64,000 bases of DNA from positions 29,230 through 93,229 of the forward strand of contig CAYGZQ010000007.1 in the NCBI GenBank assembly GCA_964354375.1, read 5' to 3'. Numbering within the stretch: the stretch's first letter is position 1; every line of letters begins with the position of its first letter. This document shows positions 799 through 16,137 of this stretch, one piece after another. A program made the position numbers and the translations under genes. The notes beneath the pieces are model-generated. The model ran no database searches, was not told where the DNA came from, and worked only from the letters and a program-made list of their open reading frames with translations. This DNA is from an uncultured Planctomycetota bacterium. Lineage in GTDB: Bacteria > JAJVIF01 > JAPKYR01.

Positions 799-959
799 CT
801 CAAGGACCACGCTCGCGAGCTGAGCACCGAGGTCTACCCCGTGCCCGAGTACATCGACCATCAGGTCGCTGAGCTGAAGCTGGCCGCGATGGGGGTCACG
901 ATCGACCAGCTCACACCCGAGCAGATCGAGTACCTCTCCAGCTGGCAGGAAGGGACCTA
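799..959 (+). other. In-frame continuation of ahcY after the internal TAG; it encodes the canonical AhcY C-terminal tail.
   Basis: Same frame as ahcY. It translates [53 protein letters not shown], which is the conserved SAH-hydrolase C-terminus, and ends at TAG 957-959. Confidence 0.6.
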
Positions 960-990
960 GATTTCGACAAAGCGCAGGACTCCCGGTGGC

Positions 991-1094
991 TGACGCCGCC
1001 GGTTACGCACTCGCTTACGCTCGTGCTTCGGAATTGGTGTGCAACAATACAGGTCGGAAGCGCGAGCGTAAGCGAGTGCGTAACCGACGGCGTA
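991..1094. repeat. Long imperfect inverted repeat: arms of about 38 bp with two mismatches and a 27-nt loop. It lies directly 3' of ahcY.
   Basis: Arm 991-1029 is tgacgccgccggttacgcactcgcttacgctcgtgcttc. Arm 1057-1094 is its near-exact reverse complement. Confidence 0.6.
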
Positions 1095-1233
1095 AGCCAT
1101 CGGCTCCCGAAGCGCCCAGCAGGGCAGCGGGCATCCAACCTGATGACCCCTTTCATAACACCATTTCCCCCTTTATGATGGTACAATCTCCTCTCCTTGA
1201 AAGGAGGCGTTTGAGATTTTTCGCAAGCTTCCG

Positions 1234-2172
1234 TTGAAAATAACGATCCTGCTCGCGTTCTTCGGGTTCGCTTACGGGATCGGCAACATGGTCACGCCGG
1301 AGATGTACCGGGAGATGTCGCCGGGGAAGCTCGGCTATGTTTTCGTCCCGGACGACGATACGTTTGTCAAGACAAACCACTATCTCGAGATTCGGTTCGT
1401 CCAGATGGGGCCTGAAGCGCCTCTTGCGGCCACAGCATGGATAAGCCGGTCGCCCGACGAAGCTCCTCAGGCGCTTGAGTTCGAGCCCGCGATCTACCGG
1501 GGCAAGGAAACCGACAAGTGGTTCGCCATCCTGCCGCCGCTCGACAAGATAGGCTCTCGATGGTTCTACTACATCATGATCGAGACCAGTGAAGGCCGGA
1601 CAATCGAAATCTGGAAGTCCATGAACCGGCTCGAGAAGCTGTTTTCCGGATTCGAAAAGGACCGGCAGCTTTTCTGGACCACGTACGAGGGCAACGTCGT
1701 GCGCGACATGCCCTACGGCAAGGCTGCGCTGGTGACCCACATAGTGTTCTCGTTCGGCGCGCTTCTCTTTCTGTTCCACACGCTCTACTACGCGCTCTCC
1801 ATTCTGGACAAGCCCGGCTCTCTCGCTTTCATCAAGTGCTTCAGATCGTCATTCTGGGCGCTCCTGATTTTTGCAGTCGGGGCCATTGTCCTGGGAATCC
1901 CAATCACGTGGTACACATTCGGTGTCGGATTCAGCCCGTGGCCCACGCAGGGACTGACATCGCTCGGCGACATAACCGACACCAAGAGCTCCTGGCTCGT
2001 CGTCTGGTGGACCGTTCTGCTCATCAGGTATTTCCGAACCTACAGGGGAGCGCTCGGGGCGGAAATCGAGCCCGCGAAAACAAGAGCGTTCGCGATCTGG
2101 ACAATCGTCGCCCTTCTGGTCACAGTCTTCGTGTTCCTCATCCCGCATAGCCAGTTTTTGCAGTCGAGCTGA
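1234..2172 (+). CDS. Hypothetical polytopic membrane protein.
   Basis: 312-codon ORF with a TTG start at 1234. A soluble N-terminal half is followed by about five hydrophobic helices. I recognise no family. Confidence 0.55.
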   Translation: MKITILLAFFGFAYGIGNMVTPEMYREMSPGKLGYVFVPDDDTFVKTNHYLEIRFVQMGPEAPLAATAWISRSPDEAPQALEFEPAIYRGKETDKWFAILPPLDKIGSRWFYYIMIETSEGRTIEIWKSMNRLEKLFSGFEKDRQLFWTTYEGNVVRDMPYGKAALVTHIVFSFGALLFLFHTLYYALSILDKPGSLAFIKCFRSSFWALLIFAVGAIVLGIPITWYTFGVGFSPWPTQGLTSLGDITDTKSSWLVVWWTVLLIRYFRTYRGALGAEIEPAKTRAFAIWTIVALLVTVFVFLIPHSQFLQSS

Positions 2173-2234
2173 CCTCACCCCCTTGCCCCCTCTCCATCCG
2201 CCGCGGCGGATGGAGAGGGGGCAAGGGGGTGAGG
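2173..2234. repeat. Perfect 62-bp GC-rich palindrome, giving a 31-bp stem. It looks like a terminator or REP-like element, directly after the membrane-protein gene.
   Basis: cctcacccccttgccccctctccatccgcc|ggcggatggagagggggcaagggggtgagg. A partial third copy, gggggtgagg, follows at about 2248-2257. There is no T-tract. Confidence 0.7.
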
Positions 2235-2295
2235 CAGAGGGGGCCGGGGGGTGAGGTCGGGACTTCTCCCATTTCGCGTGCGATACTATTAGTGT

Positions 2296-3225
2296 ATGGA
2301 TTGGCCCTCCGATACCGAGAACTCCGGGTACTATGCGTTTGAGCCGGAGAGGTTTCTTATCCCGCCGATGGAGGGGTTTCTTCGGCGCATTTTCGCAGCC
2401 CGCTGGGGGATGATACTGGTCAGCGGCCCCGAAGCCATGAACCTTCCGGTGATTCTGAATTTCCTGGCCAACTTCGCGCTCCAGCAGGTTTACTACAGCG
2501 AGTTCTCGGCGCAGAAGGCAGATTTCCAGGATCTCGAAAGCGAGAGAAGAAGACTGAGGACCATCGAAGAGGTCCTCGAGGAAGCTCGCGAGGCGGTTTC
2601 CCGGTCCGGCAAGGAAGAGGGCGAGACGGGCGAATACTCCGGACACATTCCGCGCAATTCGGATGTGGTTTTCATCTCCGACCTGAGACCCGAGCTGGTG
2701 TCCGACAGTGTGGCTACGTCGCTCGGGGGCAGGCTTGTGGTGTCGGGCATCCGATCAGAGGGGAGTTTCCCGGCCCTCAGAGCGTTCAAGGACCTTCTCG
2801 GCAGCGATCATCTCGTCGCCGCGAGTCTCATGGGAATCATCGGCCTCAACGTGGTGTCGAGGATCTGCCCCGAGTGCAAGGTGGAAGTTGAGTACGATCT
2901 GGACGATGAGGATTGTTTCCTGATCGGGATGCACAGGAAGAAGCTGCAGGGTTTCAGGGGAATGGGCTGCGAGTCGTGTCAGGGCTCGGGATACATGGGG
3001 AAGATACTCATCCACGAGGGTTTCGAGATGAGCCCGAAGCTGCGTAACGGCCTTCTTGAGTCGCTGCCGCTAAGGCAGCTCAGGATACTCGCGAAGCAGG
3101 AGGGCATGAGGACGCTTCTGGACGCCACGTGGGATCTGGCCGACGCGGGCGAGACAACGCTTGACGAGGTGATTCGCATTGCCGATGTCACCGACCCCGG
3201 CGGGATCGAACTCGCCGACCTGTGA
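2296..3225 (+). CDS. GspE/PilB-family secretion-ATPase-like protein with degenerate Walker A and B motifs (predicted pseudo-ATPase).
   Basis: The C-terminal tetracysteine region RICPECK...GCESCQGSGYMGK...TTLDEVIRI and the His-box-like region VVFISDLRPE...RLVVSGIRSEGSFPALRAFKDL match the GspE core. The P-loop position reads ILVSGPEAMNLPV and has no GKT/S. Confidence 0.7.
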   Translation: MDWPSDTENSGYYAFEPERFLIPPMEGFLRRIFAARWGMILVSGPEAMNLPVILNFLANFALQQVYYSEFSAQKADFQDLESERRRLRTIEEVLEEAREAVSRSGKEEGETGEYSGHIPRNSDVVFISDLRPELVSDSVATSLGGRLVVSGIRSEGSFPALRAFKDLLGSDHLVAASLMGIIGLNVVSRICPECKVEVEYDLDDEDCFLIGMHRKKLQGFRGMGCESCQGSGYMGKILIHEGFEMSPKLRNGLLESLPLRQLRILAKQEGMRTLLDATWDLADAGETTLDEVIRIADVTDPGGIELADL

Positions 3226-3247
3226 CCAGATGGATCGCTTGAAATGT

Positions 3248-3272
3248 GCAGGCCCGATTTTGCCTGCTTTCG
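3248..3272 (+). terminator. Probable rho-independent terminator.
   Basis: The stem-loop gcaggc-ccgatttt-gcctgc is followed by tttcg, about 23 nt after the stop of the GspE-like gene. Confidence 0.45.
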
Positions 3273-3446
3273 AGTATAATTAGATGTGGAAGTTGAGCTG
3301 TAGCTGTACCGTATTTCGATCGTCAGTCTCATTTCCCGCTACCCAATCTGGATTCGGCAACTAGACAGTGGCCGGCGCTTTCACGATGTTCCTTCGCGTG
3401 CCAGCCACGTTGCATAATGAGATTCAGAGAATCCGGGGAGCAGAAG

Positions 3447-4325
3447 ATGAGACCTTCAGACAAGCCAAACCGCCGCCCCCTTTCGTCGCCCAGACGCCTC
3501 GCTCTGCTGGCGACCGCGATATGCCTGTGGATATCCACTCTCTCGATCGTCCTTAACCATGAAATCGCGGTCGAATGGCTTCCCGCCACCGCCCCACGTG
3601 TCGCTCCCGACGGCGTTGTCTACCAGAGCACGGACTACTCATGCGGTCCTGCGAGCCTTGCCACTCTCTTCGGGCACTACAACATCGTAAAGAGTGAGCG
3701 GGAGTGGGCGGAGGTCGCCGGCACAAACCTGTCTGTGGGCACGCGACTGAGCGGGCTGAAGAAGGCGGCGGAGAGCATGGGATTCGAGCCGGTCGCTCTG
3801 AATCCCACATTCGATCAGCTCGACCTGATCTGCCGGCCGTCCATTCTCTTCCAGTCAAAGGACTACCACCTCGTCACGTTCTGGGGAATGGACCGACAGG
3901 GCTGCGCGATCATACGCGATCCCGCGCTGGGACGCACTCGATGGGGTCCGGCTGAGTACGCCGCTTTTACGCCTTCCAGGCCCGATCTCCTCGTGTTCTA
4001 TCCCGGTCGCGTGCCTACGTGCGGACCCGAAAGCTCCAGCATGGAAATCGGCAGAATCCAGAATATGCTTTCTGCGCTGGGTTACTACAAGGGCAAGGTC
4101 GACTGCGCATGGACAGACCGCCTTGCCGCAGCCGTCGCTTCCTTCCAGAGCGACATGCGTCTCGATCCCACCGGAATCGTCGACGCTCCCACGGACATCT
4201 ACCTCGAAGGCGCCTGGCGTCTCGTGACGAACGGGCCCATCGAGCCGTTCATGAGGATCGACTGCACCAATGAACCGACGCATCGGCCGGTAGCCATCCT
4301 GACCCGCCTCTCACCCTCCGAATAA
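3447..4325 (+). CDS. Secreted or membrane-anchored C39-family cysteine peptidase domain protein with a C-terminal peptidoglycan-binding (PG_binding_1-like) domain.
   Basis: The ATG at 3447 has a GGGGAG RBS 7 nt upstream; the longer ORF starts at 3417. The N-terminus has an Arg-rich n-region followed by a TM helix. The C39 motifs are present: Q-x5-CGPASL (YQSTDYSCGPASLATLF) and HLVTFWG...IRDP. The PG-binding-like repeat is IQNMLSALGYYKGKVDCAWTDRLAAAVASFQSDMRLDPTGIVD. Confidence 0.7.
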   Translation: MRPSDKPNRRPLSSPRRLALLATAICLWISTLSIVLNHEIAVEWLPATAPRVAPDGVVYQSTDYSCGPASLATLFGHYNIVKSEREWAEVAGTNLSVGTRLSGLKKAAESMGFEPVALNPTFDQLDLICRPSILFQSKDYHLVTFWGMDRQGCAIIRDPALGRTRWGPAEYAAFTPSRPDLLVFYPGRVPTCGPESSSMEIGRIQNMLSALGYYKGKVDCAWTDRLAAAVASFQSDMRLDPTGIVDAPTDIYLEGAWRLVTNGPIEPFMRIDCTNEPTHRPVAILTRLSPSE

Positions 4326-4409
4326 GCAGCGGCTCCCCCCGAGTGCGCCGGCTTTCCAGCCGGCATTCGTTTGCATCCAACGGTGCGTTTTACGCTATAA
4401 TTCGGCGAC

Positions 4410-5192
4410 TTGAGCGAGAACGCCACAAAGCCCCTGGTCTGTGTTCCCACCTTCAACGAGCGCGAGAACATCTCGAAGCTGATTGGCTGCATATTCGATG
4501 CGATCCCGTTTGCCGAGATCATGATAGTCGACGACGGCTCGCCGGACGGCACCGGCGCTATTGTCGACGAGATGGCGTCGAAAAATCCGCACATTCATTG
4601 CATCCATCGCGCGGGCAAGATGGGGCTTGGGACCGCCTACATCGCCGCCTTCAAATGGGCCCTCGAGCGCGACTACACCCATTGCTTCGAGATGGACGCC
4701 GATTTCAGCCACGACCCGAAGGATCTGCCGAGACTCCTCGACGCAACGAAGGAATTCGACATCGCGATCGGGTCGAGGTTCTATGCGGGGAAGCTCTCGA
4801 TAGTCAACTGGCCGCTGTCAAGGCTCATCCTGTCGCTCGCCGCCACCGTCTACGCCCGGGTGATCACCGGCTTGAGGCTGTGGGACTGCACGACCGGCTT
4901 CAAGTGCTTCCGACGGAAGGTGCTCGAACACCTGCCCCTCGATAAGGTGAAAAGCGAGGGCTACTCGTTCCAGATCGAGATGAATTTCCGCGCGACCAGA
5001 ATGGGCTTCAAGGTGGGCGAGATACCGATCGTCTTCACCGACCGCACCCAGGGTGGCAGCAAGATGTCGAAGAGGATCGTCTTCGAAGCGATCTGGCGGG
5101 TATGGCAGCTTCGATGGGCCGGGGCTATGGAGGATTTGGGCTGCCTGCTAAGGGGAAAGCGTCGCCCCAGACCGGGCAGAGCACAGGGTTAG
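4410..5192 (+). CDS. GT2 glycosyltransferase, polyprenol-phosphate mannose/glucose synthase (Dpm1/Ppm1-like).
   Basis: PTFNERENI, IMIVDDGSPDGTG, the DXD-containing EMDADFSHDP and QGGSKMS are typical of the Dpm1 family. It has a TTG start and a TAG stop. Confidence 0.8.
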   Translation: MSENATKPLVCVPTFNERENISKLIGCIFDAIPFAEIMIVDDGSPDGTGAIVDEMASKNPHIHCIHRAGKMGLGTAYIAAFKWALERDYTHCFEMDADFSHDPKDLPRLLDATKEFDIAIGSRFYAGKLSIVNWPLSRLILSLAATVYARVITGLRLWDCTTGFKCFRRKVLEHLPLDKVKSEGYSFQIEMNFRATRMGFKVGEIPIVFTDRTQGGSKMSKRIVFEAIWRVWQLRWAGAMEDLGCLLRGKRRPRPGRAQG

Positions 5193-5193
5193 C

Positions 5194-6936
5194 CTAATCC
5201 GAACGCGGCTTCGCCTTATTAGCGACTTCCACTATCTGATCAAGCACCTCTCCGATCTCAGGGTCAACCAGCTCGTCCGGAACATGTCTGGCCAGTTGAT
5301 GATAGTGACTCTTGCTCATCAGATTCGGCATGTTGAGCTTCTGGAAGAAGAAAGGAAACAGTATGTCCAGGAAATCGTCGCTCGCCTTCTTGTCGATCCA
5401 CCAGGCGCTTGTCGGGTCGCGGAGCGCAAACGGGGGAACCACCTCTTCAATCGCCTCTCTCATCGCATTCTGACACTCGGTCATTTCTGACTCCGCAAAC
5501 AGTGGACCAAGCGATCGCTTCTGGCCAAACTCCCCGGCGTACGATAACAGGGTTTCTCCCTGGCAAAGATAGTTTTCAATTTCTCTGCGTCTCCACATAT
5601 GTTCCGGCAATTCCTCCCGGTCCAGCGGTTCCTTGTCAGTGCGGTCAGTCAAAATAAAGCCGACAAGGTCTCTCTTGGCCTCACGCAGCCCGCTGAAGTG
5701 CGCTCTGGCCTTGGAGGGAGAATTGCCGACATAGTACACAAACGGCCGTTCCAGCTTATCCTTCGCCGGATGGCGCAGCTTCTCGGCAAAAGCTCTTAGA
5801 ATGGCCAGATCGCTGGAACCTTCCAGATATAGAACCCACCCGGTCTGCTCAGCCTGATAGTACTGGTCGAAACCTATTTCGCGCAGAGATTTCAGTAGCT
5901 GGCTCCCCCGATCGTCAATCCTGTGAGGCGGCCCCACGAACGCCACAACCATATCCCTCCCGGCAGCCTCGGTGAGGACAACCTCAGAGTGACTGGCTGC
6001 AATGACTTGGCTCCCCGATGACCGAGCCGTCTCAGTAAGGATCTGGTAAATCTGTCTCTGGCGCAGGATTTCCAGATGTGCATCAGGCTCGTCGAGAAGA
6101 AGAACAGCTCCCGGATTGGCCGTCATGAAGGCCATCAGCAAAAGGGTTTGCTGAAGGCCGCGACCTGATGACGACAGGTCGAGAGTGACGCCTTTGAGTG
6201 TTTCATAGGTCATGATGATTTCATGCCTCTCGGTGACGACTGGGGAGTTCAACTGTACACCAAAGAGTCCTCTAATCCTGCCACTGACGAAATCCCATTT
6301 GTCCTTTCCCGATTCACCGGAGTAAAGCTGATAGCAGAGATTCCTCAGGACCTCCGCGGTGCGGCCCTGGTCAATCAGGAACCGGATTTCTCCTTTCTGC
6401 TTGACAAACTCGCGATCCGCCAGTCCGGACATCGGTGGGAGAAACGCCAGCTCGGTTCCGATCGCGGGTTTAGGTATGGGTATTCGCTTCGGTTTCTTGC
6501 TTTCGTCGAGCCTCAAGGGCCGACAGTAAATCGATTCTACGTTGGCAAAGTCAAACTCCAATCCGCAGTCCCACGGCATCGACTCGCTCAGGCTCACCCC
6601 TGAGACAATGATGTCTATCCTCACCTTTCTCGGCTTTTCATCTTTATCCCTTGGTTTTGCGAATAGATGCAGATCACGCCAGATGAGTTTCGCATCCGGA
6701 ATCGGCAGGGCAGTGAGATCCTGTCTATTGATGGCTACTCCCGGCCTTTCCTTTGATGATTCGTCAGAGCCATGTTTCTCGATCCACTTCTTCAACCCAA
6801 TATCCCAAAGAGCCAAAGCCTGAAGAGCGGTTGTCTTTCCGGAGTCATTGGGGCCGATGAAGACAACAGCATCGCCAAGCTCGATCGTCACATCGCCGAA
6901 TCGTTTGAAGTTCTTGACGCGCAGTTCAGTAAGCAT
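5194..6936 (-). CDS. OLD-family-like ATP-dependent nuclease: an N-terminal ABC/AAA_15-21 ATPase with a C-terminal TOPRIM/DUF4435-like domain.
   Basis: Walker A is FIGPNDSGKTT inside the MLTELRVKNFKRF N-terminus. There is an ABC signature-like SSGRG, followed by the Walker B/D-loop LLLDEPDAHLE and the H-loop ASHS. The C-terminal part has LYLEGSSD and ILTDRTD acidic motifs that resemble TOPRIM. The region looks AT-richer than its flanks. Confidence 0.7.
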   Translation of the reverse strand: MLTELRVKNFKRFGDVTIELGDAVVFIGPNDSGKTTALQALALWDIGLKKWIEKHGSDESSKERPGVAINRQDLTALPIPDAKLIWRDLHLFAKPRDKDEKPRKVRIDIIVSGVSLSESMPWDCGLEFDFANVESIYCRPLRLDESKKPKRIPIPKPAIGTELAFLPPMSGLADREFVKQKGEIRFLIDQGRTAEVLRNLCYQLYSGESGKDKWDFVSGRIRGLFGVQLNSPVVTERHEIIMTYETLKGVTLDLSSSGRGLQQTLLLMAFMTANPGAVLLLDEPDAHLEILRQRQIYQILTETARSSGSQVIAASHSEVVLTEAAGRDMVVAFVGPPHRIDDRGSQLLKSLREIGFDQYYQAEQTGWVLYLEGSSDLAILRAFAEKLRHPAKDKLERPFVYYVGNSPSKARAHFSGLREAKRDLVGFILTDRTDKEPLDREELPEHMWRRREIENYLCQGETLLSYAGEFGQKRSLGPLFAESEMTECQNAMREAIEEVVPPFALRDPTSAWWIDKKASDDFLDILFPFFFQKLNMPNLMSKSHYHQLARHVPDELVDPEIGEVLDQIVEVANKAKPRSD

Positions 6937-7027: not shown

Positions 7028-7885
7028 TTAGCCGAGGTTTATGTTAAATCCCTTCGAGCCTGAGCCGCGTTCGAACGGCAGGAAGGGCGTCAGTCGACCC
7101 GCCAGGCCCGGCATGGTCATGTGCTGAATCCATACCTTGCCGGGGCCGGTCAGCCTCGCCAGGAAAATACCCTCGCCACCGAGAAATATGTTTTTGAATC
7201 CTTTCTGAAGCTTGATGTCGTAGGTCACGCTTGCCTCGAAACACGCGATATGCCCCGTGTCGATGAGAAGGCTCTGGCCGGGCTGAAGATCCCGGGTGGT
7301 CAGCTCGCCGTCGATCTCCAGGAACACCAGGCCCGGACCGGTGAGCTTCTGCAAAACCAGGCCCTCGCCGCCGAAGAAAGCCGCCCCCGCTCCCCGCCAT
7401 TCCATCGCGAGGTCCACCTCCTCCTGTCCGACCAGGAAACTTCCGCGCTGCGCGATGATCGCTTCTCCCGCCTTCAGCTCGAACGGGAGTATCTTGCCGG
7501 GGAAGCTCGATGCAAACGCGACAGTGCCGGGCGCATTCTCGGCTTTGAAGTAGTTGAGGAAAAGGCTTTCGCCCTGTATGGCGCGACTGGCGGCCTTCAG
7601 AAAAGTGTCCAGCGCGCCCTTGCTCTCTTTCCCTTTTTGAATGGACGTTTCCATTTCTATCGAGGCGTCCATCCAGACCATCCCTCCCGTCTCGGAGAAC
7701 ACTCGCTCCCCCTGGGGGAGGTCGATCTCCACTGTCTGCAGAATCTCGCCCGCAATACGGTAGACGAGCGGTTTGGGCTGGGCCGGTGCGACAGACGCCT
7801 CCTGGGCTCCTCCCGTCTTCGCCCCGCATTCCGGGCAGAACTTCGCGTTGTCATTCAGTTGCTTTCCGCAGTTTGGACAGAACAT
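7028..7885 (-). CDS. Protein with an N-terminal double zinc ribbon followed by an AIM24/TIGR00266-family domain.
   Basis: MFCPNCGKQLNDNAKFCPECGAKT is followed by a roughly 230-aa region with Gly-rich beta motifs (GGEGLVLQKLTGPGLVFLEIDGEL, GGEGIFLARLTGPGKVWIQ) typical of AIM24/DUF124 proteins. Confidence 0.65.
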   Translation of the reverse strand: MFCPNCGKQLNDNAKFCPECGAKTGGAQEASVAPAQPKPLVYRIAGEILQTVEIDLPQGERVFSETGGMVWMDASIEMETSIQKGKESKGALDTFLKAASRAIQGESLFLNYFKAENAPGTVAFASSFPGKILPFELKAGEAIIAQRGSFLVGQEEVDLAMEWRGAGAAFFGGEGLVLQKLTGPGLVFLEIDGELTTRDLQPGQSLLIDTGHIACFEASVTYDIKLQKGFKNIFLGGEGIFLARLTGPGKVWIQHMTMPGLAGRLTPFLPFERGSGSKGFNINLG

Positions 7886-7944: not shown

Positions 7945-9108
7945 CTAGACCAGTTTCGTTCCGCATTTGTTGCAGAATTTCTCCTCCGGGTCGACTTGAT
8001 CGCCGCATTTCGGACAGAAGTTCGGCTTGGCTTCCCCAATGGACGGCATCTCGGGAGCGGCTTTCTCCTCCACCGCTTTCGGATGTCGCCTGCCCGCAAG
8101 CACAGCAACAAGTATCACCACGCCCGCAAGCAGAACCAGTATCACCCACCAATACAGGATCACGAATTTGATAATCAGCACCAGGACAATCGACAGCACA
8201 AGGCTTATGACACCTATCACGAATCTCAGCCCGCCACCGACGAAAGGCACGTACTTCAGCAGAAACAGAAGCGGTCCGATTATCAGGTTGAAGCCGAGGA
8301 AGAACAGAATCACACTCAACGCAGTCAGACCCCACTTGGCGGCGCTTTCGCTTGCCGCCAGATCGGCCACGAGCTCATCGGCGCTCTTGTCGGTGATGAT
8401 GAACGGCGTCCCCGACGAAATCCTGTCGCTGACCATCTCTCCCACCACGACCAGGTCGCCGACATCCTCAATCGGCAGATACTCGACAAGAAGCCATCGC
8501 GACCCGAGAGTCTCCGGACCCTTGTCCTGGCAACTCTCGAACCTCGTCAGCCTCAGGTCGGATTCCCTGGGAAGGACCTCGATCTCGCCGAGCATGAATG
8601 AAGAGGCAGCCTGGGTCTGTTCATCGAGGACCTGCCAGTCCTGGACCATGTACTGCTCCTCGACCGTTTCCTGGACTTCCTGACCGTTGACGGTGCGCGT
8701 CACAGTCTTCTGCCTTGTCTCCGGGTGCTCCCTGAACTCCTTGAGGGCCGTGTGATACCAGAAGACATCCTCTTTCGCATTGATTTCCTTGCACGCGATG
8801 TCGAAAGGCATCACCTCGACATTCTCGGGTTTCCCGTGGACCTTCAGCAGGCCGGTCTGTCCTTTGGCCTCGGCAGCGGTGAGAAGCGGCAGCGCATCGA
8901 GGGTCTTGCTGTGCTCTGCAACCCCTCTCACCGAGCACCACGCCGGAACAAAGGCCAGAGCGAACAGGATAAATCCGAGGAACATGCCTCCGATCGAGTC
9001 CATACATCCCTGCTTGGTGTCGCGGAAGCCTTTCGCCAGTGGATTCGCGCTCCCGAGCACTTTTCTGGACACTACGCGGGAACCGATGAATCTCTCTCTT
9101 GGGCTCAT
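7945..9108 (-). CDS. Membrane protein with an N-terminal signal/TM helix, a roughly 200-aa extracytoplasmic domain, a C-terminal TM bundle and a terminal double zinc ribbon.
   Basis: There is a GGAGGG RBS before the ATG at 9108. A hydrophobic stretch runs FLGFILFALAFVPAWC. The extracytoplasmic domain is followed by three or four TM helices. The C-terminus is FCPKCGDQVDPEEKFCNKCGTKLV. Confidence 0.6.
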   Translation of the reverse strand: MSPRERFIGSRVVSRKVLGSANPLAKGFRDTKQGCMDSIGGMFLGFILFALAFVPAWCSVRGVAEHSKTLDALPLLTAAEAKGQTGLLKVHGKPENVEVMPFDIACKEINAKEDVFWYHTALKEFREHPETRQKTVTRTVNGQEVQETVEEQYMVQDWQVLDEQTQAASSFMLGEIEVLPRESDLRLTRFESCQDKGPETLGSRWLLVEYLPIEDVGDLVVVGEMVSDRISSGTPFIITDKSADELVADLAASESAAKWGLTALSVILFFLGFNLIIGPLLFLLKYVPFVGGGLRFVIGVISLVLSIVLVLIIKFVILYWWVILVLLAGVVILVAVLAGRRHPKAVEEKAAPEMPSIGEAKPNFCPKCGDQVDPEEKFCNKCGTKLV

Positions 9109-9174: not shown

Positions 9175-12100
9175 TCAATATCCCGACACATACACTTCGT
9201 CGATCTGCCAGCCCGCTCTGGAAGCTCCCAGCGAGCCGACAGCAGCGGCGAACGCGAGACGGAAACCGTCCGGATTCCCCACCCATGCCGGGTCCAGGTT
9301 GCACACCGTAAGCCTCATAAACTTGGGATTCGAATCGTTGCAGAAAGCCGGCATTCCTATAAGCTCGTTGTTCCCAAGGATCACGCAGTCATACTCATTA
9401 AACCCACCGTCAAGGTCTGCCGGAAGCTCGCCCCACAGGAAGTCGGTCAGGTAGTCCTTCCCGTTGACGATATGCACGTTCCCGCCGTCCTGGCAGAACC
9501 CCGTAAGTCCGTAATCGTCGAACTCGTAAGAATGTGTGAAGACAAGTTGCAGGGTTGTGAATCCGGGAGGCACGAAGATAGGAGGCGAGAACAGCACCGA
9601 ATGCGTCAGAAGATCGTATTTGTACGTGCTTCCCGAGAACAACGGACCACGACCCACAAGGTTCGGATTCTGGTGCCATCCTATATACCAGCTTGAGGAT
9701 CCCCCGGAGTCGAAATCCTTGATCCAATCGTTCCTGTCATAGTCGGTCGCGCTGAACTCCCAATCGGCATGAAACAATGCGCCGCCTCCGACGCACCATT
9801 CGCTTCGCACTTCCGGCAGATGGAATGCGTCTTGGGCCACTACCGGGATCCAGTAGCGATTGACGTTTTCGTCGAGATAGCCCAGCTCGGAGCCGACAAT
9901 GTCCTCGACCTTGAACGAGATCGAATCGCCGGACACGTCGCCATAATAAACGTCCTCCACCCGCCGCCCGGGAGAACGGTAATCCCAAAGGTACCACTGG
10001 TAATAGACTCGATCGCCGTCGGGATCCTCGGCGGGAAGCTGCAAAGTAACCTGCTGACTCCAGCCCGGCGTCAGGTTCCCACCCTCGATCTCGTCCACCG
10101 TCGGCGGATCATTGGGCTGGTCGTCAAGGATGTACACCGAGACATCGTCGATCATCCAGCCCCTCGCGTTCGGGAAGTCCTGATTCAAGGCCGTGCTTGC
10201 CGCGAAACTGACCCTGATATCGTGTCCGGCAAATAGTGGATCGATTCTGGCTACACTGGTCGTCAGGGTATGATGGGTGCCCGAAAAAACGTCCTGGTTC
10301 AGAAGCTTGTTCTGGGTGCCCTCATATATGGGCTTCGCCCAGTACTCCCTTCCGGCTTTGATATTGGCCGGCGTGATGCCATGGGAGAGTATCTCGCCGG
10401 CCTCGGTGATCTTTACGTTTCCGCCGCTGTAGGCCTGCCAGTAGTTGGGGCTCGCGCTACCGTAAATTTGCCCGAAGTCGAAAGAATGCCTGAAGACGAC
10501 TATTCCCTGGGTCATTGCGGACGGCAGATGGATTGCCGGGCTGACGAGAATGTCGGACGACCCGTAATCATAATCGGTGTTCGCTGCGCCGAACTTCCGA
10601 CCGGTCCCATCGAGCGTATCGTCCGTCACGGCGTCGTCGGTCCATCTCGACGGTCCCTCGCCTTCCAGAGTCGCCCAGCCGATGTTGTCGCCTTTGTCTG
10701 CATCGTCCATGCTTGCATGAAAAATCTGGCCATTGACCCACACCGTATACGGATCGGCATTCACAGAAGCGTTGTAACCGTCGTCCACCTTGCACTTGAT
10801 CAGCCACTCGCCCTCCTGAATGCCCGTGGAACTGAAAATCACATCAATCGTCCCATCTTTGTTGCCCTCTCCCAGATCGACCGTGAGTATCCCCTCGGGA
10901 TGCACCACTTTCCAGTTGTATTTGAGCGGAAGAACGCTGTCGACCTTGACCTGGTATGTCACCTCATGCTTGTTTCGCGGATAGAGAGGTCCGGAAATCC
11001 CCTCGGTGATAACCGGCGGCTCGGGCTGCACATGGGGCACAAGCTCGAGCTGGTACTGCACCATCTCGGTTTCGTTCAACGTGATGACACGGATGAAATA
11101 CTGTCCGACATCGCAGACAAGCGACGTATCCAGGCTGCCGACTCCCCCGATCACTTCCGCCTGCGCGATTTTCGTCTCGGACGCATCATAGATCGTGACA
11201 AAGGTCTGCGGGGACGTGGTGTAGAGGTTCACCATCCCCTGCTCCCAGACCTCGGACCCGTTTTGAAATGAATAATAGTCCTTGTAGTCGGTCAGGCTGC
11301 CCCCAAGGCGGCATAACGATCCCTGTGCGACGTCCATCCACTCCAGCGCCTCCGCATCGTCGATCCCGTTGTTCTCATCCGCGACGCATTCCAGCTTGGG
11401 GACGTTGATTATCAGTTCCTGAAAAGCGCTGACCGGCTCGTCAGGAGCCTCGGGAAGTCCCGTGTTGTACTTCAGCCCATCGTTGGAGCCCACTCGAATC
11501 AGCACCAGATGGTCGCCGTCGTGATTGGGAATCGCCTTGCCGCTAAGGTCTATCCGATACCGGGCCTTCGTGCCGTCATCGGATACGAAATTCATCGTCT
11601 GGCCTCCCGAAAACAACTCGGGCGCAAATATTCTGACCGTATCGACTTCCGCCGCGACATTCCCGTTCGCCTTCCCCTGCCAGTCGTAAACATCAGCGTT
11701 TATGACAAGCTGTCCCTTGCCTCCCACTCCCTCCTCAAAACATAGCGTGTTCAATTCGACATGGGCGTCGACATGATACGGTTCCGACTGATTAGCCTCG
11801 ATCGGGAAATCGTCGGGGATTTCCTGCGGGGGAAACGGATCGGGATAATCCCAGCATGCGTCGACGGCATAGTTGAACACGGCCGGACAATCAGTGGCTT
11901 GTGGAGGCTTGACTCTGTATCGTCGCTTGCATGTGGTGCCGACGTACGACACTCCGCGACCGAGGTCATCATCGAGCGGGACATTCGCCATGCTCGTCAC
12001 GGGCTGATACTTGTCGAGGTAGTCGCAGAAGTACTTGTAGGGATTCACGGTGGCGGTCAGCAACTCTGTATCCTGGGTGCCTAGCTCACCGGGCACGTAG

Positions 12101-12630
12101 CCGTTCAAACCCGAGCCTGTAAACTCCCTGGGGTTCCACCAGCGCGTGTACCCGTCCGCATTCAGAAGCCTCCATTCGTCAACGTCCGATACGACAAGAT
12201 TGCCGATCTGCAGGCTGCCCGGCGTCATGAGAATCCCCTTGGCGTCGAAGCCGTACAAACTCGGGCTGTCCGGATACGGATGCGTAAAGGTGAAATCCAG
12301 CGCGAAGATCTTGTTGGGAATGTCGCTTGCCTGCCAGTCAAACCAGATGCCCACGCAGTCATAAGTGTTCAGAGGCTCCACCAGGTTGACATGGAATCCG
12401 GCCGACCTCAGCGGCGTCATCTCGACCGTCAGATTTTCGGTGTCAAGCCTTACCTCCCACAGTCCGAGGAGACGATGATGCGTCCCGCTCTCGTCGCGAC
12501 CGGCAGGGAAGCTCAACGAAGGACTCGACGGATCTCCGCGATCCGATCCTGAGCAGCCTGCCCCGACGCACCACGCAACCGCCGCCATCACCAGGATGCA
12601 TGCCGACCAAACGGCTCTTCGCTTGACCAT
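9175..12630 (-). CDS. Giant lipoprotein, family member A (1151 aa): conserved N-terminal module, a PPC-like segment and two or three MAM/jelly-roll-like modules.
   Basis: GGAGGTGA RBS. Signal peptide plus lipobox VGAGC. The N-module motifs are LLGLWEV, ADGYTRWWNP, TATVNPYKYFCDYL, FNYAVDACW and IPDDFPIEAN. It also has CRLGGSLTDYKDYYSF and repeated C-terminal modules ending GWMIDDVSVY and GWQIDEVYV. Confidence 0.8.
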   Translation of the reverse strand: MVKRRAVWSACILVMAAVAWCVGAGCSGSDRGDPSSPSLSFPAGRDESGTHHRLLGLWEVRLDTENLTVEMTPLRSAGFHVNLVEPLNTYDCVGIWFDWQASDIPNKIFALDFTFTHPYPDSPSLYGFDAKGILMTPGSLQIGNLVVSDVDEWRLLNADGYTRWWNPREFTGSGLNGYVPGELGTQDTELLTATVNPYKYFCDYLDKYQPVTSMANVPLDDDLGRGVSYVGTTCKRRYRVKPPQATDCPAVFNYAVDACWDYPDPFPPQEIPDDFPIEANQSEPYHVDAHVELNTLCFEEGVGGKGQLVINADVYDWQGKANGNVAAEVDTVRIFAPELFSGGQTMNFVSDDGTKARYRIDLSGKAIPNHDGDHLVLIRVGSNDGLKYNTGLPEAPDEPVSAFQELIINVPKLECVADENNGIDDAEALEWMDVAQGSLCRLGGSLTDYKDYYSFQNGSEVWEQGMVNLYTTSPQTFVTIYDASETKIAQAEVIGGVGSLDTSLVCDVGQYFIRVITLNETEMVQYQLELVPHVQPEPPVITEGISGPLYPRNKHEVTYQVKVDSVLPLKYNWKVVHPEGILTVDLGEGNKDGTIDVIFSSTGIQEGEWLIKCKVDDGYNASVNADPYTVWVNGQIFHASMDDADKGDNIGWATLEGEGPSRWTDDAVTDDTLDGTGRKFGAANTDYDYGSSDILVSPAIHLPSAMTQGIVVFRHSFDFGQIYGSASPNYWQAYSGGNVKITEAGEILSHGITPANIKAGREYWAKPIYEGTQNKLLNQDVFSGTHHTLTTSVARIDPLFAGHDIRVSFAASTALNQDFPNARGWMIDDVSVYILDDQPNDPPTVDEIEGGNLTPGWSQQVTLQLPAEDPDGDRVYYQWYLWDYRSPGRRVEDVYYGDVSGDSISFKVEDIVGSELGYLDENVNRYWIPVVAQDAFHLPEVRSEWCVGGGALFHADWEFSATDYDRNDWIKDFDSGGSSSWYIGWHQNPNLVGRGPLFSGSTYKYDLLTHSVLFSPPIFVPPGFTTLQLVFTHSYEFDDYGLTGFCQDGGNVHIVNGKDYLTDFLWGELPADLDGGFNEYDCVILGNNELIGMPAFCNDSNPKFMRLTVCNLDPAWVGNPDGFRLAFAAAVGSLGASRAGWQIDEVYVSGY

Positions 12631-12669: not shown

Positions 12670-15600
12670 TCACTCCACCCCGTAAAGAACGACCTCATCA
12701 ATCAGCCACCCTCTGCGTGGCACACCGGACAGGCTTGAGGACGCCGCGAATCCGACGCGAATGCTCATCGGGTCCGCCAGCCACAAAGGATCAAGATACG
12801 CGTAGGAGATCCTCATTGCAGCCGGGGCCTCGTCGTTACAGAAGGCATCCTGACCGCCAAGCAGACCACCCGACTCAAGCTGGCAATCATACGGGAAGCC
12901 TATGTCCATCTGTTCCGGGGGGTCGAACCAATGGAAATCGGTCAGGTAGTTGTCAGCCTCGACAACGTGCACGTTCCCGCCGTCATGGCACTCCGAGACC
13001 ACATCATCATCGTAGAACTGGTAGTAATGGGCGAACCCGATCATCGCTTCGCTGAATCCGGGAGGGATGAAAATCGGGGGAGTGAAAAGCACTGCGTGAT
13101 CGTCAGTCGTGTAATCGGTGTCCGCATCGGCGAACTTGTACCCACACCCGCCGAGCACCGAATCCGTCACGCTCGCACCGTGCCATGTCGAGTCGCTGCC
13201 TTCGTCGAACGCGGTATCCCACTCGGCCTTATCGTAATACGGAGTCGGGTCATCGGGATCAAACCAGAAGAGAATCCCGTTGCCCACCGTCCACGCTTCC
13301 CTCTTTATTCCCTCATGATATCCGTCTGTTACCGACACGCTGACTCGGAATCGATTGCTGTAGCCACCGGTCACGAGATCGCTGATGACGAAGTCAAGAG
13401 CGGGGGCGATCGGATCGTAGTAGATGTTCCTCACTCGAACGCCGGGATACCGGAAATCCCACAGCGACCAGGTTCTGTAAATTGCGTCCCCGTCCGGATC
13501 GGACGCCGCCATCGCGTAATGAAGAGGATCATCCATATGGGGCGCAAGGTCCCCGCCTTCCAGCGGTCCGGCATCGGGTTCCTGATTGGGAGCATCTCCC
13601 TCGACATATACCGCGACATCGTCGATCAGCCAGCCGCGGTAGTTTGAGTATTCATGTCCGGTTGTCACGGCAAAGCCGATGTAGATATCGTTTCCGGCCA
13701 TTGCCGGAGGAATGCTCGCGGCGGAGACGGTGAGTCTGAACGGATCGGAAGCCTCATTCGACCGGTAGCAGAACGCCTGCTGGTCCTCCATCAGGGTATC
13801 GCCCTGGATCAGCTGGGACCAGCATGGCATCCCTCCCGTAATCTCGGCCGGCAGAACGTCGTAGGACGGGAGCTCGGGCGCCTCCGTTATCTTCACATTG
13901 CCTCCGTCGTATCCCTCCCAGAACTCGTACCCCGGCCTCGTCTTGGCAATGTCGAGGTCGTACGAGTGACGGAAAGCGATAATCCCGTGACCCATCCCGC
14001 TCGGAAGACTCACGGGCGGGCTCACAAGGATGTCGGACGAATTGTTCGTGTAATTAGTATTCGCCTCTCCAAACTTTCGACCTTCGCCCTGAAGCAGGGT
14101 GTCCGAGGTGGCCAACAGGGTCCACGCCGTGGTTCCAGCCTGCCCCACATGGGTCCAGCCCGCATTGTCTCCAGTCGTGTCATCGTTCAAATCAGCATGG
14201 AAAATCTGACCGTTAACCCAGACATGGTATGGGTCGGCCGAGACCGGTCCCCCCACCCCGTTCGTGACTTCACAACGGATCTCTGCTTCCCCCAGGATAC
14301 AGAAATCCGAGAACTTGACCTCCAGATGACCGTTGCCGTCGCCCGGATCGGGTCCGAACACCACAAAACCCGAGTCCACGATAGTCCAGCCATACGTCAC
14401 CGGCCAGACTGAATCAACCCCGATTTCGTACAGGGTGTTCTGTGCGCATCGGGGATACTTGTATCCGCTGATTTGGCTCACGATCACCGGCGCTGAGACG
14501 TCCTGAGCGTTCCCCTTGAGATCGACGTAGTAGTAGATCGTGTCCACTTCGTTCATTGTCAGAACGCGGAGATAATAGGTCCCCGGCATCAGGTAAAGCG
14601 CGCCGAGATCGATCTGGGCCTTCCCGCCGGAAATCTCCGATTGCGTCAGCTTCGTATGGGTCGAATCGAACACGCTCAGGAAGACCATGTTCGACCAGGC
14701 ATAGAGCGTGGCTGATCCTGTAAGCCCCTTGTCTACCGGAATTTCGAAGGAGTAGTAGTCGCTGTAGTCGATCAGCTCTCCGCCAGGGCGGCAGAGAGTC
14801 CCGTAGGCGGAGTCGATGAGATCGAACGGTTCCGCAGTGGCAAAAGTGTTGTTTCCGTCCGGGCCGCATTCGAGTTCCTCGACATTGACCCAGAGCACCT
14901 GGTAGGCGCTTAACGGCTGGTCCGGAGCTCCCGGCGCAAATGAGTTGTACTTCAGGCCGTCGTTCGATCCGACCCGGAATATCACCTGATGCTCACCTGA
15001 GCGCGCGGGGTTCACGATTCCGCTCAGATCAACGGAATAGACCGCCTTGACTCCCGTGTCCTGCACAAGGCTCATGGTCTGCCCCCCGCTGAAAAGCTCG
15101 GGAGCGAAAACCCGCACCGTGCTGACCTGGTCCGCGATGTTCCCGAGCGCCTGACCCTGCCAGTCGTACACTTCGAGCGTCAACAGGAGATTTCCACCGC
15201 CACCGGTCCCCGCATCGAATCCCAGCGTGTTCACATCGGCTCTCGGAAGCAAATGGAACGCCTCCGGCTGGTTAGCCTCCATTGGGAAATCATCCGGAAT
15301 TTCTCCGGGTGGATTCGGCACCGGCGGCGCCCATGATGCGTCCACTGCGTAGTTGAAGATGACCTGGGGACCGGGGGACATCTGGAACCAGATGAAGTAC
15401 CTTCTCGTGTTCGACGATCCGGCCGTGAACACCCCCCTGCCCTCGTCATCGTCCAGACCGACAAATTCGATCAGCTCTTCGATTGGCTGCTTAAACCCGA
15501 GGTAATCGCAGAAATATTGGTACGGATTCACGGTCGCAGTCAACAGGCCCGTGTTCGCGGTTCCCAGATTGCCCGGGATATATCGCATCATTCCCGACCC

Positions 15601-16137
15601 GTGGAACTCTGTCGGGTTCCACCATCTCGTATACCCGTCGGCACTTGTCAGGCGTGTCTCGGTCGGTCCTGCGAACACAAGATTCCCAACTACCTGGGTG
15701 CCGGGAGTAATCATGATGCCCTTCACGTCGAAACCCGCAAGCTGCGGGCTCGTTGCGAAAGGATGGGTCAGCGTCACGTCCACCGTGAACTTGCCCATCG
15801 CCGGGTCGCTGGCCGGGAGGTCGATAACCGCAGCCACTCCCATGGTCGAGTTGAGTATCCCCACGACATTCATGTGGAACGCGCTGTTCCTGAGCGGGAT
15901 CATCTCTACCGTCATCTTGTCGCGATCCAGTATCGCCTCCCAGTATCCCCACAGCCCGTGCGCCGCGCCCTTCGAAGAAGAAGCCGCGGCTTGAGTCAGT
16001 GCCTGCGAATCAACGCTCGTCTCCCCGGAAGCTCCCGGGGCAACCGGAATGTCGCCGGAACATCCCGCGGCAAGAAACACCGTGGCAAGAGCGAGGAAGG
16101 GAAGAGTACTACGCGTCCAGAGAATCAGCCGTTTCAT
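12670..16137 (-). CDS. Giant lipoprotein, family member B (1155 aa), a tandem paralog of A.
   Basis: AAGGAG RBS and lipobox LAAGC. The whole protein is collinear with A: HGLWGYWEA, ADGYTRWWNP, TATVNPYQYFCDYL, FNYAVDASW, IPDDFPMEAN, CRPGGELIDYSDYYSF, and GWLIDDVAVY / GWLIDEVVLY. Confidence 0.8.
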   Translation of the reverse strand: MKRLILWTRSTLPFLALATVFLAAGCSGDIPVAPGASGETSVDSQALTQAAASSSKGAAHGLWGYWEAILDRDKMTVEMIPLRNSAFHMNVVGILNSTMGVAAVIDLPASDPAMGKFTVDVTLTHPFATSPQLAGFDVKGIMITPGTQVVGNLVFAGPTETRLTSADGYTRWWNPTEFHGSGMMRYIPGNLGTANTGLLTATVNPYQYFCDYLGFKQPIEELIEFVGLDDDEGRGVFTAGSSNTRRYFIWFQMSPGPQVIFNYAVDASWAPPVPNPPGEIPDDFPMEANQPEAFHLLPRADVNTLGFDAGTGGGGNLLLTLEVYDWQGQALGNIADQVSTVRVFAPELFSGGQTMSLVQDTGVKAVYSVDLSGIVNPARSGEHQVIFRVGSNDGLKYNSFAPGAPDQPLSAYQVLWVNVEELECGPDGNNTFATAEPFDLIDSAYGTLCRPGGELIDYSDYYSFEIPVDKGLTGSATLYAWSNMVFLSVFDSTHTKLTQSEISGGKAQIDLGALYLMPGTYYLRVLTMNEVDTIYYYVDLKGNAQDVSAPVIVSQISGYKYPRCAQNTLYEIGVDSVWPVTYGWTIVDSGFVVFGPDPGDGNGHLEVKFSDFCILGEAEIRCEVTNGVGGPVSADPYHVWVNGQIFHADLNDDTTGDNAGWTHVGQAGTTAWTLLATSDTLLQGEGRKFGEANTNYTNNSSDILVSPPVSLPSGMGHGIIAFRHSYDLDIAKTRPGYEFWEGYDGGNVKITEAPELPSYDVLPAEITGGMPCWSQLIQGDTLMEDQQAFCYRSNEASDPFRLTVSAASIPPAMAGNDIYIGFAVTTGHEYSNYRGWLIDDVAVYVEGDAPNQEPDAGPLEGGDLAPHMDDPLHYAMAASDPDGDAIYRTWSLWDFRYPGVRVRNIYYDPIAPALDFVISDLVTGGYSNRFRVSVSVTDGYHEGIKREAWTVGNGILFWFDPDDPTPYYDKAEWDTAFDEGSDSTWHGASVTDSVLGGCGYKFADADTDYTTDDHAVLFTPPIFIPPGFSEAMIGFAHYYQFYDDDVVSECHDGGNVHVVEADNYLTDFHWFDPPEQMDIGFPYDCQLESGGLLGGQDAFCNDEAPAAMRISYAYLDPLWLADPMSIRVGFAASSSLSGVPRRGWLIDEVVLYGVE

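Follow-up and report, generated by a model that had tools for sequence, protein, structure and literature searches.

Can the core of a molecular motor be kept by selection once the residues that drive the motor have gone and, if so, what might it be kept for? The question is raised by a gene in a stretch of 64,000 nucleotides (hereafter the window; contig CAYGZQ010000007.1, positions 29,230 to 93,229) from an uncultured Planctomycetota bacterium. Motors of the GspE/PilB type are regarded as obligate hexameric ATPases in which the Walker A motif, the catalytic glutamate and the arginine fingers are invariant. A first-pass annotation had proposed that the gene encodes a catalytically dead GspE/PilB-like protein outside any type II secretion system (T2SS) or type IV pilus (T4P) locus. 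That core reading holds: the loss of motifs extends across 33 orthologs, and the genomic context is empty of such loci. Its homology places the protein in an enzyme family, residues that catalysis requires are missing and purifying selection acts on the gene; on these grounds we conclude that it is a conserved pseudo-ATPase, with its inactivity a prediction from sequence.

2296..3225, plus strand: the pseudo-ATPase gene, encoding a 309-amino-acid soluble protein that corresponds to the linker and C-terminal domain (CTD; RecA-like, CM zinc and C-terminal helical parts) of a GspE/PilB-type ATPase.

A word-indexed search returned 33 full-length orthologs of 299–341 amino acids that share 49–62% identity. 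The resemblance to GspE/PilB that had been noticed by eye lies far beyond chance. The Pfam model PF00437 (T2SSE) matches the window protein at 1.5e-13 (50.6 bits against a gathering score of 24.9), although over positions 212–370 of its 370 only; Thermus PilF (6EJF) is matched in the PDB sequences at 6.5e-22; the family profile matches ATPases at 4e-32 (HMMER); and alignment by hhalign to a profile of 25 canonical full-length ATPases gives a probability of 100% and an E-value of 2e-44 over 262 columns. The GspE model TIGR02533 matches at 8.9e-27, but its score of 93.9 misses the equivalog cutoff of 630.25, as does that of TIGR02538 (65.2 against 675.65). An AlphaFold2 (AF2) model built with the 33 orthologs as input has a predicted local distance difference test score (pLDDT) of 82 and a predicted template modelling score (pTM) of 0.79. 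It contains the RecA-like CTD fold: in Foldseek it retrieves PilF, PilB and GspE at E-values of 1e-19 to 1e-15 (TMq about 0.6), with PilT-type ATPases ranked far lower, at about 1e-9. The window protein is thus a significant homolog of the GspE/PilB/PilF assembly ATPases, and of their C-terminal RecA-like domain alone.

This CTD-only architecture was overlooked in the first-pass annotation. In the hhalign alignment residues 26–305 correspond to positions 315–577 of a 577-amino-acid PilB-like protein and to nothing before them, and the Pfam, NCBIfam and PDB matches are restricted to residues ~118–296. Homology to canonical ATPases starts at the linker between the N2D domain and the CTD; N1D and N2D are both missing. 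In PilB the arginine fingers, R271 and R286, lie inside N2D (residues 181–288; McCallum et al., PMC5424180), and the contact of N2D with the CTD of the adjoining chain is the principal interface between chains, at ~1600 Å2 (PMC5424180). Because N2D carries the fingers, its absence removes both, and we regard its loss as the most consequential change in the protein.

Could an error of frame or start have hidden the missing parts? The ATG at 2296 is the earliest start codon downstream of the in-frame stop (ORF scan), the open reading frame (ORF) is intact, and the start and the block of sequence upstream of it are conserved in 13 loci. No P-loop is restored by this check, in agreement with what had been proposed, and no ortholog contains GK[ST] at that position; the sole 'GKT' that was found, in P0026, lies in the CM loop and was set aside. 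Nor is there a displaced N-terminal half upstream, since the 123-bp spacer is accounted for by a hairpin and a promoter-like block, and the preceding ORF encodes a different conserved membrane protein.

The fate of each motif was followed by counting its states over the 33 full-length orthologs, with columns mapped by hhalign and HMMER alignments. The segments concerned are these.

2329..2409, plus strand: family-specific N-terminal block (residues 12–38, YAFEPERFLIPPMEGFLRRIFAARWG), at the position of the N2D–CTD linker and the lead-in to strand beta1.
2425..2448, plus strand: degenerate P-loop (residues 44–51, GPEAMNLP against GPTGSGKT), placed by the hhalign column map.
2560..2583, plus strand: Asp-box remnant (residues 89–96, TIEEVLEE against TVEDPVEY), placed by HMMER and hhalign alignments.
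2584..2649, plus strand: variable acidic linker (residues 97–118), the least conserved block.
2659..2685, plus strand: Walker B strand remnant (residues 122–130, SDVVFISDL against PDVIMVGEI), placed by sequence and profile alignments.
2728..2763, plus strand: His-box remnant (residues 145–156, GRLVVSGIRSEG against GHLVLSTLHTND), with the strand kept and both histidines replaced by arginine (R146, R153).
2866..2979, plus strand: predicted CM zinc-binding subdomain (CPEC-x30-CESC, residues 191–228), with four invariant cysteines.
3190..3201, plus strand: family-specific C-terminal TDPG tail (residues 299–302), past the end of the canonical ATPase alignment.

Walker A, the catalytic glutamate, the two arginine fingers and the Asp-box glutamate are completely conserved in the GspE/PilB family (PMC5424180). 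In the window protein the P-loop reads G44-P-E-A-M-N-L-P51 and, as had been claimed, has no GK[ST]; its lysine position is leucine in 27 orthologs, arginine in three, isoleucine in two and valine in one, and lysine in none. The replacement is not random. It follows a pattern of its own, [AG]P[ED]x[IV][ND]L, with an acidic residue within the loop in 21/33, and in the AF2 model the site retains its strand (38–44), loop and helix (50–63).

The Asp box and Walker B had been described as replaced by a charged insert. This proved incorrect: residues 89–96 are the remnant of the Asp box and 122–130 that of the Walker B strand, and only the segment between them, 97–118, is a variable linker, which ranges from 16 to 51 amino acids among orthologs, is 23% aspartate and glutamate, and is predicted to be disordered at residues 106–118 (pLDDT <50). 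The Asp-box glutamate coordinates Mg2+. In the remnant, position 91 is acidic in 30 of the 33 orthologs and position 92 in all; the proline is gone throughout, and the AF2 model shows a short strand (87–89) running into a helix (90–104). The Walker B remnant has an acidic residue at position 123 in 33/33 and an invariant F126, with its glycine changed to serine or proline; at 129, the catalytic-glutamate position, the window protein has aspartate, and the residue is acidic in 24/33 and non-acidic in 9/33. The His-box region had been thought to be kept, which is true of the strand and not of the histidines: position 146 is arginine in 19 orthologs, lysine in five, histidine in five, asparagine in three and serine in one, while position 153 is arginine in 23, histidine in three and something else in seven.

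Set against these losses are features that the family holds without exception. The tetracysteine motif, C191-x2-C194-x30-C225-x2-C228, had been reported from the single sequence and is invariant in all 33 orthologs. Its 30-residue spacer is of a length allowed by CXXCX21-40CXXC, the pattern by which the GspE/PilB clade is told from PilT (PMC5061722), and this puts the window protein in the assembly-ATPase clade and not with PilT/PilU. In the N-terminal block F15, P17, E18, F20, P23, W37 and G38 are invariant, in motifs that are absent from real ATPases; among the best 150 matches of an exhaustive search, residues 1–79 are matched solely by fragments of the pseudo-ATPase family. At the other end T299, D300 and P301 do not vary at all, and conservation of G302 is 90% or more.

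The retained acidic residues allow another interpretation, namely that the protein is still an enzyme, an NTPase or phosphotransferase whose non-canonical nucleotide site would be made up of E91, E92, D123, D129, R120 and the arginine or lysine at position 236. The Asp-box acidic pair is present in 30–33 of the 33 orthologs, D/E123 in 33/33 and R120 in 33/33, and the adenine-contacting arginine that follows the CM domain (R441 in EpsE; PMC5061722) is kept as R or K at position 236, in the motif GYxG[RK]. Yet no member has a lysine or a glycine-rich loop at the phosphate-binding position, and in 21/33 the loop contains an acidic residue; both arginine fingers have gone with N2D, the His-box residues are lost, and more than a quarter of the family has no acidic residue at the catalytic-glutamate position. 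We consider retained catalysis very improbable.

A further possibility is that the gene is simply decaying: a truncated or frameshifted remnant of a former gspE or pilB that has no function, as might be thought from the missing catalytic motifs, the missing N-terminal half and a position outside any secretion locus. Comparison with the closest relative, locus L019 (95.8% identical), shows otherwise. The pseudo-ATPase genes differ by 13 nonsynonymous and 45 synonymous changes, giving a ratio of nonsynonymous to synonymous rates (dN/dS) of 0.075, where the neighbouring genes give 0.073 (GT2), 0.056 (AdoHcyase), 0.099 (C39) and 0.25 (TM312). The gene is therefore under strong purifying selection, on a par with its housekeeping neighbours, and is not decaying. 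The ortholog alignment has 43 invariant columns, the new family-specific motifs among them; the ORF is intact and of like length throughout; the start codon and the promoter-like block are conserved; the fold is predicted with confidence; and a different conserved gene upstream leaves no room for a displaced N-terminal half. Together these data effectively refute the pseudogene reading, to which we attach next to no probability.

The family that selection maintains is small and lineage-restricted. When 1.84 billion representatives were searched exhaustively with HMMER, a single full-length 50% cluster and some fragments were recovered, after which scores drop from 346 to 112 bits, where ordinary ATPases begin. 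The orthologs come from metagenome-assembled genomes (MAGs) of uncultured organisms labelled Planctomycetota or just 'bacterium', and the public records call them 'hypothetical protein' or carry an automatic 'GspE/PilB-like' label; PADLOC returned no match for the pseudo-ATPase.

Two features in the spacer that precedes the gene bear on how it is expressed.

2173..2234, no strand assigned: perfect GC-rich hairpin with a 29-bp stem, directly 3' of the stop codon of the upstream gene, TM312.
2279..2291, plus strand: T[GA]nGATAnTAnT block, ending 5 nt 5' of the ATG in the window.

The core of the block is invariant in 13/13 orthologous loci (the window, L001, L003, L005, L007–L012, L014, L015 and L019), where it ends 5–9 nt before the ATG; upstream of it the loci are unrelated in sequence. 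It occurs nowhere else in the window, with 0 occurrences expected by chance, and no Shine-Dalgarno sequence separates it from the ATG. Its form suggests an extended -10-like promoter from which a leaderless or near-leaderless mRNA would be made, or else a conserved operator; a scan of 800–5400 for sigma-70 and terminator consensus sequences gave no excess over shuffled expectation. The spacer with the hairpin has a folding energy of -92 kcal/mol (z = -7.45); neither arm recurs in the window, and the hairpin is not followed by a U-tract. L019 alone has a related one, and the element is accordingly young. It could be REP-like, or else a terminator or stabiliser; Rfam yielded sub-threshold matches to generic miRNA hairpins only, and identity with a known RNA was rejected. 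The hairpin after TM312 and the separate promoter-like block argue that the pseudo-ATPase would form a transcription unit of its own.

What, then, might such a protein do? With the P-loop lysine and glycines and the arginine fingers lost, canonical binding and hydrolysis of ATP would not be expected; with N2D lost, neither would the canonical homohexamer of N2D against CTD. If the protein can do neither, then it must act by binding, and on these grounds action by binding alone is highly likely. The more specific proposal, which we consider probable, is that the pseudo-ATPase is a zinc-stabilised, stand-alone CTD working as a nucleotide-independent docking subunit. It would be expressed from its own conserved promoter and would engage a partner encoded elsewhere through the retained CTD and CM surfaces, the N-terminal FEPERF...RWG block and the C-terminal TDPG tail. 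The best candidate for that partner would be a catalytically competent ATPase of the GspE/PilB family, or a type IV filament machine, whose N2D the pseudo-ATPase might accept and whose oligomer it might thereby cap or tune. Inactive variants of EpsE are dominant negative, an effect ascribed to competition for partners or to mixed oligomers (PMC5061722), which makes action on a real motor plausible. Identification of the partner as a type IV filament or T2SS motor draws on this behaviour, on ancestry and on the retained CTD and CM surfaces, and we put it forward tentatively, as a possibility that falls short of an even chance.

Several observations weigh against the docking proposal or against a motor as partner. 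Where PilB has its conserved pore glutamate, the residue varies within the family, a point against motor-like engagement of the PilC/GspF platform. Some of the acidic residues in the Asp box and Walker B survive, and some binding of metal or ligand is possible; the absence of ATPase activity is itself predicted. The genomic context is also silent. That no pilin, GspF or secretin gene lies nearby had been claimed, and Pfam scans together with a prepilin-motif scan found none of these, nor any other T2SS/T4P component, anywhere in the 64-kb window (a single match to the prepilin motif in six frames was spurious, lying within a kinase/TPR protein). Genes for the GspF/PilC platform, pilins or pseudopilins, secretin and prepilin peptidase are likewise absent within about 10 kb in ten distinct orthologous loci. 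A tblastn search of the window with 40 canonical ATPases found the pseudo-ATPase gene only, and in 272 kb of loci from the lineage the orthologs alone were matched, with no intact GspE/PilB gene. A motor partner is therefore unsupported by context.

If the partner is not a motor, then the genes that accompany the pseudo-ATPase deserve attention. The broad order is AdoHcyase – [TM312] – pseudo-ATPase – [C39/PG-binding] – GT2 – AIM24/TMEM43-like; single neighbours vary, and the pseudo-ATPase is kept where its neighbours change. Three of these genes lie close to it on the same strand.

1234..2172, plus strand: TM312, an upstream membrane protein, the most frequent same-strand neighbour and a candidate partner.
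3417..4325, plus strand: membrane-anchored C39-like peptidase with a PG_binding_1 domain, downstream (Pfam 6.2e-14 and 6.1e-11), an inconstant neighbour.
4410..5192, plus strand: GT2 glycosyltransferase resembling polyprenyl-phosphate sugar synthases (Pfam 7.1e-27).

TM312 has no Pfam or NCBIfam match and no significant fold match in the PDB. Its family comprises 31 proteins and is lineage-restricted. Residues H169, H182 and H305 are invariant, as are the motifs PWPTQG, GDITDTK and the C-terminal IPHSQF, and the AF2 model consists of an N-terminal transmembrane (TM) helix, a beta-sandwich and a bundle of four long TM helices. The invariant histidines and motifs suggest a cofactor- or metal-binding membrane protein. 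A divergent platform of the GspF/PilC kind was considered and rejected: besides the want of Pfam and NCBIfam matches, Foldseek returned GLIC-like and Ig/CBM-like structures with TM-scores of at most 0.28.

The pseudo-ATPase might then be the soluble partner of TM312, the two forming a cassette for some envelope process that has nothing to do with type IV filaments or T2SS, with the dead core seated on the cytoplasmic side of a membrane bundle that binds a cofactor or metal, as its cap or adaptor. The gene directly upstream, on the same strand, is TM312 in the window, L003, L007, L008, L009 and L019; at least 11 of its homologs share a contig with a pseudo-ATPase ortholog, one such pair having the adjacent locus tags ENN67_06050 and ENN67_06055; both families are restricted to one lineage; and constraint on the intramembrane histidines and several motifs is strong. 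Such a pairing is nonetheless difficult to sustain as a rule, because the pseudo-ATPase is kept without TM312 beside it in L001, L005, L010, L011, L014 and L015. A very stable hairpin separates the two genes and the pseudo-ATPase has its own promoter-like block; adjacency carries little weight in a single lineage whose synteny (AdoHcyase ... GT2 ... AIM24) is generally conserved; and TM312 is the faster evolving (dN/dS 0.25 against 0.075). We regard the cassette as unlikely.

The subclade without TM312 has another polytopic membrane protein, of about 305 amino acids, encoded divergently upstream (L001 8989–9903 and L014 204–1124, both on the minus strand); the two copies share a YYQWL motif and have no Pfam match.

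The downstream gene had been described as a C39 peptidase/PG-binding protein, an identification that Pfam confirms. It does adjoin the pseudo-ATPase in the window; the functional link that this seemed to imply is weak, the gene being missing from several orthologous loci. An association of the two, for instance with the pseudo-ATPase as a cytoplasmic adaptor for a membrane-anchored processing protease, would be in keeping with the same-strand downstream position in the window, L001, L007, L008, L009, L014 and L019 and with similar evolutionary rates (53–60% identity across the family). But the gene is absent in L003, L005 and L010 and displaced by 4 kb of inserted genes in L015, the intergenic gaps measure 190–360 bp, and the synteny is again that of a single lineage. 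The protein is, moreover, predicted to be mostly extracytoplasmic, with one N-terminal TM segment and a peptidoglycan-binding domain. We think this association very unlikely.

Beyond C39, GT2 lies downstream in most orthologous loci (75–82% identity) and has PpgS/AglJ/ArnC-like matches in NCBIfam, all under cutoff. GT2 and AIM24 are adjacent in most orthologous loci; in the window an AAA_21/AAA_15 ATPase (5194–6936, minus strand) that matches defence-system ATPases (PADLOC NsnB, AriA, GajA and mad3-like) is wedged between them. Its GC content at third codon positions is 0.62, against 0.73–0.82 in the neighbours, and its synonymous divergence from L019 is 0.61, against about 0.24; it is probably an acquired defence gene. 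There follow an AIM24-family protein with an N-terminal zinc ribbon (7028–7885, minus strand) and a TMEM43-like membrane protein with a C-terminal zinc ribbon (7945–9108, minus strand), a pair that is syntenic in L003, L005, L009 and L019. Next to these are two adjacent and paralogous giants, secreted or lipoprotein-like, of 1151 and 1155 amino acids (9175–12630 and 12670–16137, both minus strand), which have no Pfam domain; one has a weak NCBIfam match only, to a myxosortase-dependent M36 metallopeptidase, and homologs recur in orthologous loci.

The existence of a selected, stand-alone CTD that keeps its zinc subdomain implies that the core of the motor can be reused as a binding module. If the pseudo-ATPase does act on real motors, then type IV filament and T2SS machines would have an endogenous regulator of a novel type, and the dominant-negative mutants made in the laboratory would have a natural counterpart. 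There is also a practical consequence: taken at face value in metabolic and trait inference, the automatic 'GspE/PilB-like ATPase' label would give the lineage a secretion or pilus ATPase in error. For now the impact is limited, the family being small, confined to MAGs of uncultured bacteria and provided with candidate partners only.

The pseudo-ATPase family (hereafter clade A) does not stand entirely by itself. A sister clade, B (P0052 and P0198–P0204; 266–295 amino acids), is likewise CTD-only, with a degenerate P-loop, GILVCAVPPELEGN, and its tetracysteines kept. The C-terminal signature LDSAW...RIAE is common to both clades, clade B proteins are about 35% identical to the window protein, and clade B too is found outside secretion loci; the TDPG tail is lacking and the upstream block (GATAnTAnTA) is absent. 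Its genes (L016 10001–10867; L018 10001–10888) are divergent from a nuo/complex I operon and next to a methyltransferase, and come from the same metagenome sample sets as clade A; clade B may represent another pseudo-ATPase paralog, whether of that lineage or of a sister to it. Degenerate forms also occur in unrelated sequences. P0173 is a 253-amino-acid CTD-only protein with GPRRSGLST at the P-loop, and P0090 joins N2D to a degenerate CTD (GPPASGRT, His box lost) and a C-terminal receiver domain. Their occurrence suggests that catalysis may have been lost repeatedly in the GspE-like family.

The best-scoring canonical relatives of the query are of another kind: proteins of ~1000 amino acids with two complete GspE/PilB-type modules in tandem (P0047, P0048, P0050, P0071, P0091, P0102, P0111 and P0129), most with two Walker A and two tetracysteine motifs. 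As models for the pairing of a dead with a live module they are uninformative, since Walker A is kept in both.

Clade A, clade B and forms such as P0173 might together make up an unrecognised class of natural, nucleotide-free 'orphan CTD' subunits, derived from GspE/PilB motors, that regulate type IV filament or T2SS motors by taking up the N2D of a motor and so capping or poisoning the hexamer, a built-in dominant-negative switch; or the dead core might have been exapted outside secretion, as the cytoplasmic partner of the histidine-rich TM312. We offer this wider view as speculation, and doubtful as it stands. Our literature searches found no description of a GspE/PilB pseudo-ATPase; the PilB work retrieved deals with active enzymes and their cofactors only.

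A concept of the same sort is known from the archaellum. FlaH/ArlH, which is RecA/KaiC-like and whose catalytic set is incomplete, modulates the motor ATPase FlaI/ArlI, and is thus, as we propose for the pseudo-ATPase, a degenerate RecA-fold partner, not itself a motor, of a type IV filament motor. The likeness is conceptual: FlaH/ArlH is KaiC-like and not GspE-like, still binds ATP and is encoded within the archaellum operon.

The likeness to GspE/EpsE and PilB/PilF, members of the PilT/VirB11-like superfamily (PDB 4PHT, 1P9R, 5IT5, 5OIU and 5TSH), is one of descent. The window protein has the RecA-like CTD fold and strand order in common with them, together with the CM tetracysteine subdomain in its canonical spacing and the C-terminal helical subdomain, at 28% identity over about 260 columns. 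It differs from them in lacking N1D, N2D, the arginine fingers, the lysine and glycines of Walker A, the histidines of the His box and the proline of the Asp box; in the disordered acidic linker that replaces the segment between Asp box and Walker B; in its new N- and C-terminal motifs; in NCBIfam equivalog scores about 7-fold under cutoff; and in a gene that has no GspF/PilC, pilin, secretin or prepilin peptidase genes nearby.

The engineered variants of EpsE from Vibrio cholerae, in which the CM domain was deleted or its cysteines changed to serine (PMC5061722), are inactive as the window protein is predicted to be, and they interfere with a working system, which makes them a model for the natural protein. 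They are, however, laboratory mutants of a full-length enzyme that retains N1D, N2D and the P-loop, whereas the window protein is a natural and selected CTD, alone, with its predicted zinc site intact.

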